A DNA stretch of 64,000 bases. Source: Octopus vulgaris (Eukaryota). The notes below the pieces were generated by a model. It worked only from the letters and a program-made list of their open reading frames with translations. It ran no database searches and was not told the origin of the DNA. This document shows positions 10,061 to 55,141 of this stretch, one piece after another. Made by a program: the position numbers and the translations under genes. Each line of letters opens with the position of its first letter. Position 1 is the first letter of the stretch. Where the stretch lies: the NCBI GenBank assembly GCA_951406725.2, contig OX597817.1, positions 170,624,001 to 170,688,000 of the forward strand. Reading direction: 5' to 3'.

Positions 10061-10471
<411 letters not shown>

Positions 10472-11318
10472 TAGGGTGTCTGGGCTAAATTTGATGATTT
10501 TTATGTCTCCTCTTTTCAAGAAGAGCTTGATGAAGAGTATAACAATTAAAGTAGTAGTTGAAAAAAAGTTAGTTGACATGGAGGAGGGGAAACCATCTGA
10601 ATATTGGAAAAGAGTTACCTGTATCATGAAGATTCACACCTGGTATCAAAATGCCAGCACTATGACTCTTGCTCAATGTTCTGTGAGTGCTGAAAAGGGT
10701 GTAAGTGATGACATGGACATCAGGAAAACCAAGTTATCCCAAGCTGTAATGGTCTTTGGGTGCGTGTCCAGTGAAGGTCATGTCGTGTTGCTCCATATCT
10801 TTGAACAGGGCCTCAGGCTCAATTCAGACGGCTATGTGAAGCTGCTGGAGTCTGTAGTCAATCCCTGGCTGGAGAAGGTTTCTACTGGAAGGCCATATGT
10901 GTGGCAGTAGACTTTGACTGCTTACCATAGCTCAGCTAAGAACCAGAAGTGGTTGTTGGAGAATTTTCTCAACTTCACCAACCCTAATACCTGGCCTCCT
11001 AATTCCCTCAATTGTAATCCCATGGCTTACTATGTGTGGGGCATAGCTGAAAAAGATATGAACCACTCTTCCTGCAACACCAAGGCCAAGCTGATAGCCA
11101 AATCAAGGAAGCGTTTGGAGATCTACCCAGGGACACAGTGAGGAATGCATGTGCCAGGTTCTGCAGCAGTCTTGAGACCATTGTGGAAGTCATGGAGTCT
11201 ACATTGAGTTAGGTGTCATCTCCCAGCCATAATCTAGTTGATATTTTTGATTTTGTAAAATACTTTTATTTTTGGATAGGAATATAAGCAAACTGACAAA
11301 TTTAGCTCAAACACCCTG
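10472..11318 (+). mobile_element. Tc1/mariner-superfamily transposon (maT/DD37D-like), internally deleted and decayed
   Basis: TIRs (T/C)AGGGTGTYTGRGCTAAATTTG with TA flanks; translation VMVFGCVSSEG..LRLNSDGY..RPYVWQ*..WPPNSLNCNPMAYYVWG matches the DDD catalytic domain. Confidence 0.85.
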
Positions 11319-14618: not shown

Positions 14619-14794
14619 CCAGCCATCGGAAACGCTTTATAATCTCACATGTACACATATATGTATGTATTTATATATATATGTATATATAATATAATGT
14701 ATATATATATATAAAATCTGCTTTTAATGAAATTATCTCCAATACTTCATGAGTGTAGCCTCACCCACTAAGATGTTTGGAGAACTCACATGTA

Positions 14795-14885
14795 TTTTAG
14801 CTGATGAGTATGGGACACTTTTATCTGCTGCAATTTTTGCAACTTTTAATAAAGCCTGTCTTTGTATGAAACAATTGTACTAAAA
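14795..14885 (+). ncRNA. Type I hammerhead ribozyme
   Basis: TTTTAG-CTGATGA-GTATG...TGTAT-GAAAC-AATT-GTA-CTAAAA; cassette 14740-15040 is a diverged copy of 20868-21165. Confidence 0.8.
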
Positions 14886-15426
14886 ACTAATCCATTCTTG
14901 TTGCTTCTTTCTCGTTTATAATCACCCCACATTACTGTATGGTTAACACCATATAGTTTTCTGGTGCATCTAAGTTAAGTACCGTATTCAAGTAAATTCA
15001 TTAGAATTGACTTAAATCTTAATTGCTTTTTATAAAATATTATATATACAGATAATATAGTATTATATTTAGCACAAACACCCTGTACATATACATACAT
15101 GCATACATAAATATGTGTGTGTGTGTGTGTGTGTGTTTGTGTGTGAAGGTGCATGGCTTTGTGGTTAGGGTGCTGCACTCATGATTGCAAGATCATGGGT
15201 TTAATTCCCAGACCGGGTGTTGTGTTGTGTTCTTGAGTAAAGCACTTTATTTCATGTTGCTCTGCAATAACTTCAACATCTGACATGTGGCACCCATTGC
15301 ATCTGTACAGGTAATGTCAATCTCATGGAGGGAGTGAGCTTATTTGATCACTATAAACAAATCATCTGTTTGGTTGTTTGATAAGAAATTGTCAAAGCCT
15401 CATATGTTGTCTAACGACAGGAGAGC

Positions 15427-16800: not shown

Positions 16801-16892
16801 AGCTGATCTTACCAATCGGTTTCACACAAGGAATACAATGGAGTGTTAGATAACAACCTGATTATATTACCTTACACTCATTAGAGTTAGCT
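16801..16892 (-). ncRNA. Degenerate hammerhead (G5A)
   Basis: Minus strand AGCTaaCT-CTAATGA-GTGTAAGG...CCTTGTGT-GAAAC-CGATTG-GTA-AGatcAGCT; homologous to 45304-45394. Confidence 0.6.
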
Positions 16893-16907
16893 GATATGGA
16901 AGGAATG

Positions 16908-18275
16908 TAGGAATCAGGATGTCCTCTGGTCCAACCTGATTTTCAGTTTGCATGGTTCAACCAAGATTGGAGGAAAATTTTTTGCTGCTTTGGACAAATG
17001 TTTACCTAAATCTAATCGGTATCATGCTATTTTTAATCAGCACACCTTGAAGGTCTCCTATACTAACTCTGCTAATTTAGAGCAACTTATGCATTGCATA
17101 AACAATAGCAAAATGCAACAAAGGTTCAATAACCCAACTACTGGATTTAGCAAACATACACATCCAAATCCTAACAAAGGAGATGTAAACTACAATGAGA
17201 AACACTAATTATGGCCAATTTGTAATAGGAGAAATACTTATGATACAGCTAACACAGTAACAACATTGGGAAAGGAAGTCAAGACTGCCTTATATACAAA
17301 TAAATTCTCATGCAGAGAAAAATCAAAATGTCCATTGATGAATCTCTGTATGTGTACAAATCTTGTATATAAATGTACCATGCACACAAGAGGAGGGCCA
17401 TATGTTTACATTGGGCAGATGAGCGATTCATTTAATAATTGTTATTGTAACCATGTCTCCAGCTTTAAAACAATGAATAAGAGATATTCAACATCTTTGG
17501 CTGATTTTGCGTGGTGACTAAAGAGGATAAAATGAAGTACAGTGTAACTTGGTCCAAAGTGAGGTACATGAAGCCTACATTATAATTTCCAGGATATGAC
17601 GTCTGTGTTCTGAGGAGTCCTTATCTATTCTGTTCACTAATGAGCAGATCATTAACAGAATTTCTGAAAGTCTCTTGAGATGCCTACACACATATAAATG
17701 TACTTTCACACAATGCAGTGGGAATGAATTTTGAGTAACTGTTAACATAATTTACTTCAAGGTATGGATGAATTAAGCTTATTTTTAATCTTCACATTTT
17801 TATAAACACCAAGTTGCTATTTAACTGTTTTTGTGATCATGAGTGCACCGAACCACATGTGTCCATATACTTACATTTTCGCAGATGCTTGCATGAGCAA
17901 GTGTACTTGCACCATGCAGCTTTCCCGAGGGCGTTTATACATCCTTATTTGTTAATGGTTATTTTTCTCACTGAATTGCATGTTTGTTTCTTTTCTTTCC
18001 ATCTGTGATTTTATTTTCGATTTTCTATATAAATGAAGATATTTCCTCCATCTGGCTGCTTTTCTTTCTACAAAATGAGAAGTTACATTGCGGAACTGTT
18101 AGTTTAATGAGTTGTGTCAATTTATCACCCGACGAGATACATCTGCACCACTGGATGCCCCCGAACCAGTTGTTGAGTGTCCTATTTGTGATGGATCAAT
18201 GCTAGATGTGTCGAAACAATTGTTGTGATTAATAATAAATTCTTGTGTATTTCATCTTACGTTTTTCATTTGCCA
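16908..18275 (+). mobile_element. Penelope-like element, 5'-truncated: RT tail, GIY-YIG endonuclease, pseudo-LTR
   Basis: DVLWSNLIFS..STKIGGKFFAALDKCLPK..IFNQHTLKVSY (cf. WFNPP..TNIG..F...DKHFP..IFNRNT.K.SY); SCREKSKCPLMNLC..LVYKC..VYIGQ..NHVSSF..STSLADFAW; then RLCSEE..IINRISE..RCLH; frameshifts and stops; 3' region carries a hammerhead and AATAAA. Confidence 0.9.
18124..18229 (+). ncRNA. Type I hammerhead in PLE pseudo-LTR (C at position 4)
   Basis: ATCAC-CCGACGA-GATACATCT...AGATGTGTC-GAAAC-AATT-GTT-GTGAT; 9-bp stem II base, 5-bp stem I. Confidence 0.8.
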
Positions 18276-19400: not shown

Positions 19401-20258
19401 ATATATATATACATATATATAAATATATTACTATATAAAGTGTATAAAGTATTTTTATACGCAGAGAGGAGACTCTTGACAGGACTTCTTACATGATAGA
19501 AAAGGCAGTTAAAACCCAAACCATGAAAAAAAAATTCATGAGTCACGCTAGTAATATATATATTAACATATATATTTAGTGTGGTGTGGTCATCACTCTA
19601 GTAGTAGGTTTCTTTGACCACTAATCATAGTGTATAGTTGCCACTGTTACTAAATGTTAACACGATTACAAGATTTGGAATAACGAAAGAGCCATTCTTA
19701 AACTTCACATATAATTTAATGTAATTATATGTGAATTATGAGTTCAACAATAGGCCTCGTGTGAAGCTTTACATGAATATGTAAAGTTACATACAGTTTA
19801 GCCGTGTCATGTTCTGCAAGGAAAGAAATATAATAGAAAATGTACAAAAGAATTTCATGCCACAATTGGTTCACTAGTAGCGTAAGGGTAATTTGTACAT
19901 ATGTCGTATGGCATAAAAGGCTTGCGACACACAGTTGCTGCTGAAAGTCATTTCTTTGGCTTAGGCCACGTGTAGACAAACTTAGCTACTCTCTGTAATA
20001 ACAATGCATTAAGGTCAAAGTTTGGTGAGGAAGAGAAGAGGAACAAATCGTACTTGTCCAGTATATAGCCTCAAAGACTGCTGGCTCCTGGTGAATGAAA
20101 AAGCTTCCAGAACCTTCTACGACTCTGTAGTATTACTAAAAGTGACATAAATCTGCTATTCTTAGAAGTTTACTAGAATGTTCGCCAAGGGAGGTCACTG
20201 ACTTCTGGTGAACCGTAAATAATTCAATGACAGAATCTGTTTCAATTTACATCACACC

Positions 20259-20306
<48 letters not shown>

Positions 20307-20342
20307 TGTATAAATATATATATGTGTGTATATATACATATA

Positions 20343-21166
20343 TATAACCAAGAAAAAAAGCAACAAGAATGGATTAGTAGTTTAGTACAATTGTTTCATA
20401 CCAAGAACAATTTTATTTAAAGCTGCAAGTATTGCAGCAAATACAAATGTCCAGTATTCATCAGCTAAATCACATATATGTTTTCCAGACATCCTAGAGA
20501 GTGTGTCTATCCTAGATTTTCTTCACCACAGAAATAAACTAACCTTTGTCTGTGGTATATCTATGCCTTCTTACTCCCCTACTATCTTCCTCCCATAATG
20601 TCCTTTATTTGGACTGAATCTGCTTCGCTGACTCTCTTACTACTATAACCAAATTCTGTTTGCAACAGCTTAGTTGTGAAATGAACCGCTGTGTGATCAA
20701 CAGCATTCCTCATGTCTCCAGAAATTATATCTGCATTTTTATGGATGGATTCACCTTCTCTGGGAAGTTAACAATCTTTTTAAAAACTTTTTATAAAACT
20801 GTGCATCATTAGAAAGCAATTTGAGTCTGCTTATAATTTGACTTTAAATCTCATAGAACTCACTCCTAATACTTCATGAGGATAGACACACTCTCTAGGA
20901 TGTCTGGAAAACATATATGTGATTTAGCTGATGAATACTGGACATTTGTATTTGCTGCAATACTTGCAGCTTTAAATAAAATTGTTCTTGGTATGAAACA
21001 ATCGTACTAAACTACTAATCCATTCTTGTTGCTTTTTTCTTGGTTATAATCACCCCACATTATTTTATGGTTAATACCATAAACAATTCTGGTGCATCTA
21101 AGTTAAGTACCATATTCATTTGAATTCATTGGAATTCACTTGAATCTTAATTGTTTTTTGCTGAAA

Positions 21167-21168
<2 letters not shown>
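20343..21168 (+). mobile_element. PLE-type cassette with 170-bp inverted pseudo-LTR, two hammerheads
   Basis: 20343-20513 is nearly identical to the reverse complement of 20879-21048; hammerheads at 20381-20469(-) and 20923-21011(+): TTTAG-CTGATGA-ATAC..GTAT-GAAAC-AATY-GTA-CTAAA; (TA)n on both flanks. Confidence 0.9.
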
Positions 21169-21247
<79 letters not shown>

Positions 21248-23316: not shown

Positions 23317-23810
23317 ATTTGGCTCAAAAGCAAATAGCAAGGCCATGTAGGGGGACATGGAGTTAAGTACAGGGTGGTGTTCATGTAAAGAGATCAGGCC
23401 ACTTGAGGTCCAGGGAGGCTTTGAACAAAGCGGTCGTCGGCATCTTCACCATCTCGTCTGGCAGCTTGTTCCACGGATCCGCAACCCGGACGGAGAAAGC
23501 TCCTCTCCTTCGATTGAGATGAAATCGTCGCAGGTAGAGCTTTTCGGAATGACCCCGCAGCCGACGCTCCGGAGCAGGAGTGAAGAACAGCTCTTTCGAG
23601 AGGTTACACTTTCCTCTTATGATGTTGTGGGCGAGAATGAGATCACCACGGCGGCGGCGTTTTTCAAGAGAATAAAGGTTCACCAGCATGACATAGAGTG
23701 GTAGGAATATGGCTGCTGTGAGCATTCCGAATGACCGTCGAATCAAAAACAGAATTCCGCGCGCTTTGTTGGCAGCATGGACGCACTGGGCTGAAGGCGA
23801 AAAGGAGGAA
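23286..23810 (-). mobile_element. CR1-group LINE 3' end with (TAAC)n tail
   Basis: ORF ..LYSLEKRRRRGDLILAHNII..RLRGHSEKL..FSVRVADPWNKLP..FKASLD; (GTTA)n at 23286-23316. Confidence 0.9.
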
Positions 23811-24434
23811 TATATATATACAATGGGCTTCTTTCAGTTTCTATCAAATCCACTCACAAGGCTATAGTAGAAAATACTTGCCCAAGGTGCCATGCAGTGG
23901 AACTGAACTTGGGACCATGTGATGTATATGTTATATTTGAATGCTGTTGACAGTGGCTCCAAAGTTTTAACCAGGTAAGCCATAATTGGACTGTGATGCA
24001 TTAGAGTTATTTCTGCCTTACTGTCAAGAACATTCTTGCATAAGAATAATACATTTGTACTCAAAAGTACAGAATAACACATCAGATTAATATAATATTG
24101 CTTTTTATTATAACTGAACATAAAAACAGACATCAATATTTATATGTGTTTTATCCAGAATTGCAATTTCCAACCTGACATTAATTCTTCTTAAGATGAC
24201 AATGAGTGATATGAAAAAGATATAGCTGATATTTCAACAGGTAAAACATCTGTATAAATAAGATAATTTGGGACATTGGGTGCTACGTAGTAATGCCAGC
24301 ACCAGCACTGAGTCCTTGATTGGCTGAATGCAGCCCCCTGCACCAGTCTTAGAATGCACACCTCTGTTCTATTAGTCATAACCGTTTCATAAATACAGCC
24401 TGAAGTAATAATTTTTAACAGGTGAATATACAGT

Positions 24435-52378: not shown

Positions 52379-55141
52379 ATACATATGTATGTATGTATGT
52401 GTGTATGTGTGTATGTCATTATTCAGTCTAATTTCAAGATTTTTTGCCAAAAGAGAAAGAGCTGGTTTCTAACTAAGATCCAAAGCTCCTTCAGTGGAAT
52501 TTCAACAAAATAAACAGGACATTTTTTGCATGTATGTGTGTATATGTGCAGATTTCTATGTTTCGTTTAATGTATGTATTTTCATACATATACTTATATG
52601 TCTACACATGTAAATATATACTTAAATGATAAATTTCTGAAGTTTTACAGATTTTTACAGTTCCATGTATGTATGTACATATGGATGGATGGATGGATGG
52701 ATGCATGCATGAATGTATGTATGTTCTTGGTTTCACCTTTCGAATTATTTCTCACTAATGGAGAGAGAGCTAGAAACAAAAACACTTCCATAGAAATTTA
52801 GACACCATCAGATAAGCTTATCTGTTTCTTTACTACCCACAAGGGGCTAAACACAAAGGGGACAAACAAGGACAGGCAAACAGATTAAGTCGATTACATC
52901 GACCCCAGTGTGTAACTGGTACTTAATTTATCGACCCCAAAAGGATGAAAGGCAAAGTCGACCTCAGCGGAATTTGAACTCAGAATGTAATGGCAGACGA
53001 AATACAGCTACACATTTCGCCTGGTGTGCTAACGGTTCAGCCAGCTCGCCGCCTTAGATAGGCTAATCTTCGGTACATGTACACACATGTATGTATAAAC
53101 ATATATATATATGTGCACAAGCAAAAATGGGAAGGGCATTACAGTTGTGGATCATATTATATACTGAACTTTGAGGATGTTTTACATACTTTGACAGGAC
53201 TGTTGGCAGCTTGCTGCTGTAATCTTCTGATTAGTTGCATTCTTTTTGGTTTTGTGAATCTCAGCATCTCAAGATTGGTGCTGAGGCCGTTAGCCATGCA
53301 GCCAAGTACTTCAATAATTATTGAAATAATTTTAAGTTATAGTCTGAATAGAATACTTGCAGATTCTTCATTATTGGTGGTGAGCTGGCAAAAACATTAG
53401 CACGCCAGGTGAAATGCTTAGCGGTATTTCATCTGCCACTACATTCTGAGTTCAAATTCCACTGAGGTCGACTTTGCCTTTCATCCTTTTGGGGTCGATT
53501 AAATAAGTACCAGTTACGCACTGGGGTCGATATAATCAACTTAATCCATTTGTCTGTCCTTGTTTGTCCCCTCTGTGTGTAGCCCCTTGTGGGTAGTAAA
53601 GAAATAGGTATTTCATCTGCTGCTGCGTTCTAAGTTCAAATTCCGCTGAGGTTGACTTTGCCTTTCATCCTTTCGGGGTCGATTAAATAAGTACCAGTTA
53701 TGCACTGGGGTCGATATAATCGACTTAATCTGTCTGTCCTTGTCTGTCCCCTCTGTGTGTAGCCCCTTGTGGGCAGTAAAGAAATAAGATTCTTCATCAG
53801 TTTACTATAAATGTCTTCATTTGCATTATGTTGACATCTGCAGGGAAATTGATTTCAACTTCTGTGCATTGGTTCTTTACTTTGTGCCATATCATTATGT
53901 CTGATCTGTTGTGCTTGCATTATATTGAAGTCTTTTCAAGGACAAAAGTCTTTGAAATCACCTGTAGTTACATGCTCTGCATCAACGTAGCTTCTTATAT
54001 TTGTCACTTCAGGATTTTCCATTCCACATATTTCATTACACAGTGTTCTAGTCACATTTCATAAATAGGTAATATTGTGAGGACATTTTCAGGAAGCTAT
54101 CCATTTATGATGTGGGTGACATCTCTGATATTGATTCAACAAAGCCTGCATCGGTTGTCACATCTAAGTGGTTTATCTGCATCCCTATCCTTTTTATATA
54201 TCAGTTTTGTGGTCATTTCCTGCTCTTGATTTGCAAAAATCATATCCTTGAAAACGGGAAGTAATATCTGGTTATGAGTCAAGATTAGACTACCCTGGAT
54301 GTCAATGCTGCTATCACTTTGAAGCCTTCCAGAAATAGAGGTTTCAAATATTGGCACAAGGCCACTAAGTTTCAGGGGAGGGGTAAGTCATTACATCAAC
54401 CCCAGTGCTCAACTGGTACTTATTTTATCAATCTCGAAAGGATGAAAGACAAAGTCAACCTTGGAAGCATTTGAACTCAGAACATAACAATAAATGAAAT
54501 GCTGCTACATATTTTGCCTGGCATGCTAATAGTTCTGCCATCGTGCTGGGTTAAACTTTCCAGAAATATTGCCATGCATAAACTCCTGTTGGTTTTTATG
54601 CAACCATTCTTCAGATCACTTGTTGCAGTAGAGTCGTGCAGCTAAGGTGGTGAGCTGGCAGAAACATTAGCATACCGGGCGAAATGCTTAGCGGTATTTC
54701 ATCTGTCATTATGTTCTGAGTTCAAATTCCACCAGGGTCGACTTTGCCTTTCATCCTTTCGAAGTCGATAAGTTAAGTACCAGTTACGCATTGGGGTCGA
54801 TGTAATCGACTTTAATCCCTTTGTTTGTCCTTGTTTGTCCTCTCTATGTTTAGCTCCTTGTGGGCAATAAAGAAATAAGAGTTGTGGAGCTTTTCTGGGT
54901 GTATGTCTTAAATCATTCATCAGGGAATACTCTCTGAGAAACTCCTTTCTAAGTCTTATGATAATACCTGCTACATGTATGCAGATTTGATCCATGACAA
55001 GACTTCAACATTTGATGGTTCGTAGATGTTGTGGAAGGGATATGACACAACAATCAAAGTTGCATATACTGCCTCAGTATATGCAACTATAATAATAATG
55101 ATAATAATAATAATGATAATAATAATAGTAATAATAATAAT

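Follow-up and report, generated by a model that had tools for sequence, protein, structure and literature searches.

An inverted, 5'-truncated copy accompanied by a one-sided tail of 30–40 bp has been drawn as typical of PLEs (PMC8557442). The supplement of the same paper presents Penelope-13_HM, a Hydra-clade PLE in which an inverted copy is combined with a (TA)n target and with a hammerhead on each strand. In the Cercyon PLEs of Schistosoma, pairs of min-HHR motifs are found on opposite strands, 100–700 bp apart, and have been ascribed to truncated PLEs; the hammerheads of Schistosoma PLEs present a palindromic helix III and a low activity that needs dimers (PMC4209133). For PAc (Poseidon, Anolis), both strands of AT-rich DNA are reported to be cleaved and extended, with two reverse-transcription start sites that define the tail (PMC11167929). 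Taken alone, PLE hammerheads are described as cleaving poorly (PMC11167929, PMC4209133), and weak cleavage by a monomer is considered possible with a helix III of 2 bp (PMC7229834). A long helix II has also appeared in print: two spike-moss PLEs, with up to 53 nt, are marked as deviating in the PMC8557442 supplement. Finally, 336 recently active PLE insertions have been counted in one octopus genome (PMC13282606). Hammerheads arranged on opposite strands are already published (PMC8557442, PMC4209133).

We analyzed a window of 64 kb (the whole stretch of DNA under study, 64,000 nt) in which a cassette with this arrangement lies between two (TA)n tracts. The left flank (20255..20342), which represents the insertion target, is (TA)n-rich. 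It is followed by the left arm (20343..20513, minus strand; BLASTN), which is an inverted, 5'-truncated copy of the 3' region of the element, and by a 9-nt junction (20514..20522) that separates the inverted copy from the direct copy. The direct copy comprises an upstream and apparently non-coding part, likely a 3' UTR or pseudo-LTR, to which we refer as the "spacer" (20523..20878, plus strand), the right arm (20879..21048, plus strand; BLASTN) and a 3' extension or "tail" of 119 bp that is present in the direct copy only (21049..21167, plus strand). The right flank (21168..21245) is again (TA)n, and no target-site duplication can be discerned because both flanks consist of this repeat. Such (TA)n flanks, which correspond to the target of linker-bearing PLE clades, are common to the cassette, to a shorter relative at 14737, where they are TA-rich, and to a PLE remnant (16890–18275).

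A first reading of this locus, made from the sequence only, had described two arms around a spacer of 365 bp, and the interval between the arms (20514–20878) is indeed of this length. The arms measure 171 bp (left) and 170 bp (right) and share 98.8% identity (BLASTN). The sequence-only reading had recognized a single difference between them: this is correct for substitutions, the sole one being located in loop III (20389/21003; AATT in the left arm and AATC in the right arm), but a 1-bp indel had been overlooked, which falls in an A7/T6 run close to the outer ends of the arms.

Using a descriptor scan on both strands of the window, we identified three type I hammerhead folds whose core is perfect, at positions 20928 (plus strand, predicted cut after 21006), 20464 (minus strand, predicted cut at 20386) and 14801 (plus strand). 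Two of these belong to the cassette, where scan and folding delimit one motif in the left arm (20381..20469, minus strand) and one in the right arm (20923..21011, plus strand). The core CUGAUGA...GAAA and the GUA cleavage triplet are intact on both strands of the cassette, as had been claimed, and the same stringency was reached by none of 60 block shuffles. In each of the three hammerheads, helix I measures 5–6 bp, helix II 60 nt (−16.4 kcal/mol in the cassette) and helix III, which is closed by a 4-nt loop, 2 bp. The three-helix fold with helix I open can be formed, yet it is not the predicted minimum-energy fold. In the AATT form, the eight bases of helix III (ACAAUUGU) are self-complementary; the left arm carries this palindrome, which is disrupted in the right-arm motif by the C at 21003. 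The hammerhead of the direct copy is located on the sense strand, 161 nt from the 3' end of the element, its polarity being given by the depth gradient and by the remnant that are both described below.

None of the Rfam hammerhead families matched the 64-kb window at gathering score, and no hammerhead was found among the 80 matches obtained between 14000 and 22000 up to an E-value of 10. The E-value matches in this interval were all below the gathering score and mostly driven by microsatellites. The failure of Rfam to retrieve these motifs is likely due to their long helix II. When metagenome and viral contigs were scanned with patterns, 0 loci were recovered.

We searched for copies of the cassette family in sequencing runs. 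A total of 24 runs with four organism labels were indexed, of which 20 hold part of the stretch, and four of the 24 (X1, X2, X6 and X14, from organisms A, B, C and A, respectively) were compared with 20478–21167 at 85% likeness. The runs provide contigs; three of them are of DNA type (X1, X2 and X6) and X14 is guessed to be of RNA type. Contigs of the family cover 20523–21167 in all four runs (1150, 902, 390 and 76 records, respectively). The summed depth, which does not equal copy number and follows a non-monotonic curve shaped by the likeness filter, was 1757/1174/53/15 (X1/X2/X6/X14) at 20524–20546 and 433009/578696/26765/1349 at 21099–21121. This trend is that of a many-copy retroelement with a 3' end near 21167 and truncated on its 5' side. 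It follows from the depth gradient over the family contigs that the "spacer" corresponds to upstream sequence of the direct copy. Frequent 5' truncation is apparent both from this gradient, in four of four runs, and from the shorter 14737 relative. The stretch 20478–20522, which contains the inversion junction, had no contig cover in any of the four runs, but X1 was read to about 80% and records were filtered, and this gap proves nothing.

The end points of the element are shared by other copies. The end of the tail (21167) matches the end of the 14737 relative and of further copies. Among the 24 of 222 loose ends listed, two X14 contigs exit the element at 21048 into (TA)n, which is precisely the end point of the left arm. 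Since the ends at 21048 and 21167 both recur in copies, the one-sided 119-bp tail, against 30–40 bp in print, lies between two end points used by the family. One X14 contig joins the reverse complement of 20872–20901 before position 21034 (25 of 30 letters, compared by eye), and four of the five letter differences in this inverted piece correspond to listed family variants. Judging from this single contig, it appears to represent a second, independent inverted junction.

Loose ends at 21125 in the three DNA-type runs correspond to a 3' end that is about 20 bp shorter and is followed by AT-rich sequence. We also observed that the tail contains short 10-bp repeats at 21120–21150, that 13–23 contigs per DNA-type run carry a tail form shortened by about 20 bp and that one X1 contig jumps back from 21108 to 21070. 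A separate observation concerns 20754–20822, where the family depth of the three DNA-type runs is far above that of the neighboring positions. This segment is conserved across subfamilies and could be a promoter or an RNA element of the pseudo-LTR.

The "spacer" presented no Pfam match in six frames and no tblastn match from 150 PLE proteins, and its 21 variant sites are distributed 8/6/7 across the three codon positions; a coding "spacer" was rejected on this evidence. An ORF encoding RT and GIY-YIG is absent from the cassette copy (Pfam, tblastn), and no ORF was found attached to the cassette family in the data examined, in which the cassette copy was searched with Pfam and tblastn.

Variation within the family is compatible with the hammerhead structure. 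No variant was observed in the catalytic core among the 40 of 85 variant rows listed. At position 21003, T represents at least 99.7% of the summed depth in four of four runs; AATT is therefore the state of the family and AATC is rare. Position 21009 varies from A to G, which changes a U-A pair of helix I to U.G. In helix II, the pair 20939/20990 varies at both positions (T to G at 20939 and G to A or C at 20990), with letters that are pairable and unphased, and this pair is U.G in the cassette and G.U in the 14737 relative.

This relative is a single, shorter copy of the family on the plus strand (14737..15040, with a BLASTN match extending to 15048), with its core at 14801 and TA-rich flanks. 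Its identity with the cassette is 81.7% over 317 columns (242 of 297 in aligned columns), and it keeps all 12 core-proximal pairs, three of them through wobble changes. Of the family-variable sites listed for the overlap, 11 of 19 show the alternative family letter in this relative, and part of its distance is therefore a subfamily difference. This pattern of letters suggests that the copy is at least partly of a different subfamily and not simply older. The sequence-only reading had announced an older relative at 14740–15040; the copy is real, but its greater age is not borne out.

The divergence of the arms (one substitution in 170 bp) amounts to 0.6%, with a 95% interval of 0.015–3.3%. A substitution rate of 0.0036 per million years is given in PMC13282606. 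If the host is an octopus, as the look of its repeats may suggest, this rate would put the age of the cassette at about 0.8 million years (0.02–4.6), assuming that the arms were identical at insertion and that no conversion took place. The cassette is fairly young in relative terms, and its youth had been correctly perceived.

We consider it probable that the cassette is a dead, single PLE insertion in a (TA)n microsatellite, composed of a 5'-truncated direct copy (about 20523–21167) and of a shorter inverted copy (20343–20513) joined head to head. A PLE-type insertion with an inverted partial pseudo-LTR had already been proposed and is supported here by an arrangement that matches published PLE insertions: an inverted, 5'-truncated copy is present at the 5' end of the cassette, next to which the inverted junction of the X14 contig is a candidate second case. 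What was directly observed is the anatomy of the cassette, the existence of a many-copy family, end points common to several copies and a variation compatible with the structure. Several observations count against this reading: no ORF was found attached to the family, the link to the PLE remnant described below is one of architecture, the tail measures 119 bp relative to the published 30–40 bp, no Rfam hammerhead model matches, the relatives of the remnant gave few Pfam matches, all below the cutoff, and none in PDB, and the inverted junction in X14 comes from a single contig.

To account for this arrangement, we infer a two-start mechanism and a partner protein. An RT-GIY-YIG protein provided by an autonomous partner would nick both strands of the TA target, and two cDNAs would be primed on the RNA of the element, one at 21167 and the other at a start site 119 nt away (21048). 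The two would end prematurely, at lengths of about 645 and 170 nt, respectively, and their truncated ends would be joined through the 9-nt filler. The two cDNAs would both traverse the hammerhead, which is located 42–161 nt inside the 3' end, and one motif per strand would result because each cDNA crosses it. In the parent RNA, cleavage by the motif may depend on dimers formed through its palindromic helix III, or on the help of protein. At the cassette locus, it would be masked, with read-through RNA predicted to form a long double-stranded hairpin.

The same integration could have involved a different kind of family, namely a non-autonomous PLE derivative (a solo retrozyme or a SINE-like pseudo-LTR, about 645 nt long) with a natural 5' end near 20523, in which case the direct copy would be complete. 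In three contigs from two runs, the match starts at 20523 (among the 32 of 2536 pieces listed), the "spacer" shows no coding signal, and an origin from PLE pseudo-LTRs has been reported for animal retrozymes (10.64898/2026.07.22.740005). However, contig starts have many causes, and those considered come from the 32 of 2536 pieces and the 24 of 222 loose ends listed. No head-to-tail array is present at the cassette locus, and the distance of 405 nt from core to start resembles the distance of about 400 nt between the end of the ORF and the core in the PLE remnant, as would be expected of a 3' UTR. Together, these observations make a complete, non-autonomous element rather unlikely. A non-LTR retrozyme, which is recognized by head-to-tail hammerhead units, was rejected, as the family is represented in the 64 kb by an inverted pair plus a single copy located far from it.

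The left arm could also have arisen after insertion by a fold-back duplication at the DNA level, or the arms could have been homogenized by gene conversion. With either process, the identity of the arms would not date the insertion. Gene conversion can act on long inverted repeats, and the arms share letters that are in the minority in the family, such as the C at 20963 (2–11% of depth in the three DNA-type runs). Against this, the left arm stops where other copies end in (TA)n, and the private sites of the spacer (at least 2–4 in 356 bp, among the rows listed) are of the same order as the differences between the arms. We therefore judge a secondary origin or homogenization of the arm to be improbable.

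The sequence-only reading had further proposed a double-ribozyme cassette, in which transcription in either direction meets a ribozyme. Because the motifs point outward, read-through RNA on either strand makes the antisense arm before the ribozyme. Equilibrium folding, which ignores tertiary contacts, kinetics and protein help, predicted a 170-bp hairpin in this RNA (−371 and −393 kcal/mol for the two strands), with a helix I probability of 0.00 and a core that is fully paired. An RNA that starts inside the spacer is without the antisense arm, and the monomer fold is still predicted at 0.00–0.04. Motifs on opposite strands are incapable of dimerising within one RNA, and a dimer needs two sense copies. 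The predicted energy of helix III in such a dimer is −8.4 kcal/mol for an AATT pair, −4.2 kcal/mol for a mixed pair and −0.3 kcal/mol for an AATC pair, and the predicted monomer hairpin is the same for AATT and AATC. On these predictions, the cassette probably does not work as a double ribozyme, and the antisense arm, rather than a ribozyme, would be met first in either direction.

These results also bear on a possible use of the cassette by the host, as a bidirectional device acting on transcripts that arrive from the left or the right, or on RNAs that a promoter within the spacer sends out. Such a use would fit with two intact cores that point outward, and RNAs initiated in the spacer would escape the antisense arm. 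It is opposed by the complete pairing of the core predicted in read-through RNA, by the low probability of the monomer fold and by the right-arm AATC, with which the predicted energy of the dimer helix rises to −0.3 kcal/mol, against −8.4 kcal/mol with AATT; the poor cleavage described for PLE hammerheads alone (PMC11167929, PMC4209133) points in the same direction. Moreover, a young copy would keep intact cores without selection. Searching for a host gene, we obtained 0 Pfam matches among 138 of 210 filtered ORFs, a result that is weak for short exons. Overall, host use appears highly improbable.

There is next to no chance that the cassette is a MITE or a fold-back DNA transposon with terminal inverted repeats of 170 bp: near-perfect inverted repeats around a non-coding spacer and TA flanks recall such elements, but this origin is largely refuted by a right repeat that is not terminal (119 bp lie beyond it), by the one-armed 14737 relative and by the strong 3' bias of the family depth, and hammerhead folds are, to our knowledge, not among the features of MITEs.

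Other repeats were observed in the window. An inverted repeat of 235 bp (52819–53053 and 53376–53610; 89%) is formed by opposite copies of a SINE-like dispersed repeat, which has many copies in the window in addition to a tandem partial copy. The interval 52819–53610 was rejected as a second cassette, as it contains copies of a dispersed repeat and no hammerhead. Two open frames, at 23381–23833 (minus strand) and 10461–10910 (plus strand), had no Pfam match at 1e-3; by eye, the first resembles the C-terminal part of a LINE and the second a piece of a Tc1/mariner transposase.

A decayed PLE, separate from the cassette and located about 2 kb from it, was used as a comparator. This remnant (16890..18275, plus strand) comprises an RT thumb, a linker, a GIY-YIG domain and a 3' UTR of about 540 bp between TA tracts. 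Its reading frame (about 16890–17740) has 173 relatives at E ≤ 1e-10 in a full HMMER search, and a word-based protein search with the GIY-YIG frame found none (13 candidates). The alignment of 16 of the 150 listed relatives contains RT motifs together with a thumb, a linker with cysteines and, at the C-terminus, a YKA...YIG region. The motifs were named in part after PMC8557442. Pfam searches on 13 relatives of the remnant returned GIY-YIG matches below the cutoff in two of them and no RT match, and the profile built from the alignment of 16 of 150 relatives gave 0 matches in PDB. We read the remnant as a C-terminal EN+ PLE with a linker zinc finger, tentatively of the Neptune/Nematis type.

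A hammerhead fold is located on the sense strand of the remnant (18124–18229), about 400 nt behind the ORF and 51 nt before the TA tract. It presents one core mismatch, a helix II of 77 nt and the same helix III (ACAAUUGU) as the cassette. A comparable fold was found in one of 40 shuffles, and the 12-letter pattern of helix III has three occurrences relative to 0.07 expected. The similarity between the 3' UTR of the remnant and the direct copy is not significant (30 of 200 shuffles were as good); for the UTR alone, 6 of 200 shuffles were as good in local comparison and 200 of 200 in global comparison. Homology of the remnant 3' UTR with the "spacer" is unsupported by these shuffle tests. The remnant UTR being dissimilar to the cassette, the PLE ORF is tied to the hammerhead build and not to the cassette family.

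As a locus, the cassette matters little and represents one more dead retroelement insertion of published form. It nevertheless preserves a clean natural trace of how PLEs integrate, including two sites of priming, two points of truncation and dated arms, and its AATT and AATC versions form a ready natural variant pair for the analysis of dimer-dependent hammerhead cleavage. Our results suggest that a large set of animal PLE hammerheads escapes standard searches, given their long helix II, and the missed motifs bear on what ribozymes do for PLEs. We tentatively raise a broader possibility, in which we place low confidence: an undescribed hammerhead subtype may be common to two or more PLE families in this animal, with a helix II of 60–77 nt, an eight-base palindromic helix III and very many copies, which is missed by Rfam and by short-stem descriptors. 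Helix II might then be a handle for the PLE protein, priming might use two sites separated by 119 nt, a distance of three times the known tail, and inverted insertions might provide dsRNA that triggers silencing or editing of the family.

In full-text searches of the literature, we found no description of the cassette family or of octopus PLE hammerheads of this build. For the published Naiad, Chlamys and Hydra families, eight short motifs had 0 matches in the text of the PMC8557442 supplement, where long lines are truncated and a motif may be broken between two lines.

Compared with the described systems, the cassette most closely recalls PLE insertions. Penelope-13_HM shares with the cassette a (TA)n target, a 5'-truncated inverted copy at the 5' end, hammerheads on both strands and the GUA triplet, but it keeps its ORF and has a helix II of 6 bp with a 4-nt loop, whereas the cassette is without ORF and its helix II is of 60 nt. 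The Cercyon pairs of Schistosoma likewise consist of two opposite type I hammerheads with a short helix I and a palindromic helix III. Their helix II is of 7–8 bp, usually with G10.1-C11.1, and an extra base follows the core; in contrast, the cassette presents A10.1-U11.1 (G.U in the 14737 relative) and a long helix II. PAc resembles the cassette in its AT-rich target and in the two start sites that lie downstream of the hammerhead and define the tail. In PAc, however, the starts are located within the ORF, at 111–118 nt, and the tail belongs to the 30–40 bp kind, whereas the tail of the cassette is of 119 bp and no ORF start was seen. Non-LTR retrozymes are also non-coding animal repeats with a type I hammerhead (PMC7229834, 10.64898/2026.07.22.740005), but they are head-to-tail tandems of about 300 bp with canonical motifs, whereas the cassette is head-to-head and its family dispersed. 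The Neptune/Nematis-type remnant shares with the cassette a helix I of 5 bp, a helix II in the range of 60–77 nt, a ACAAUUGU helix III and TA flanks, and differs from it by the lack of significant DNA similarity outside the motif. Relative to the published forms, the helix II of 60–77 nt and the 119-bp tail go somewhat further, which makes the cassette and its family modestly unusual.
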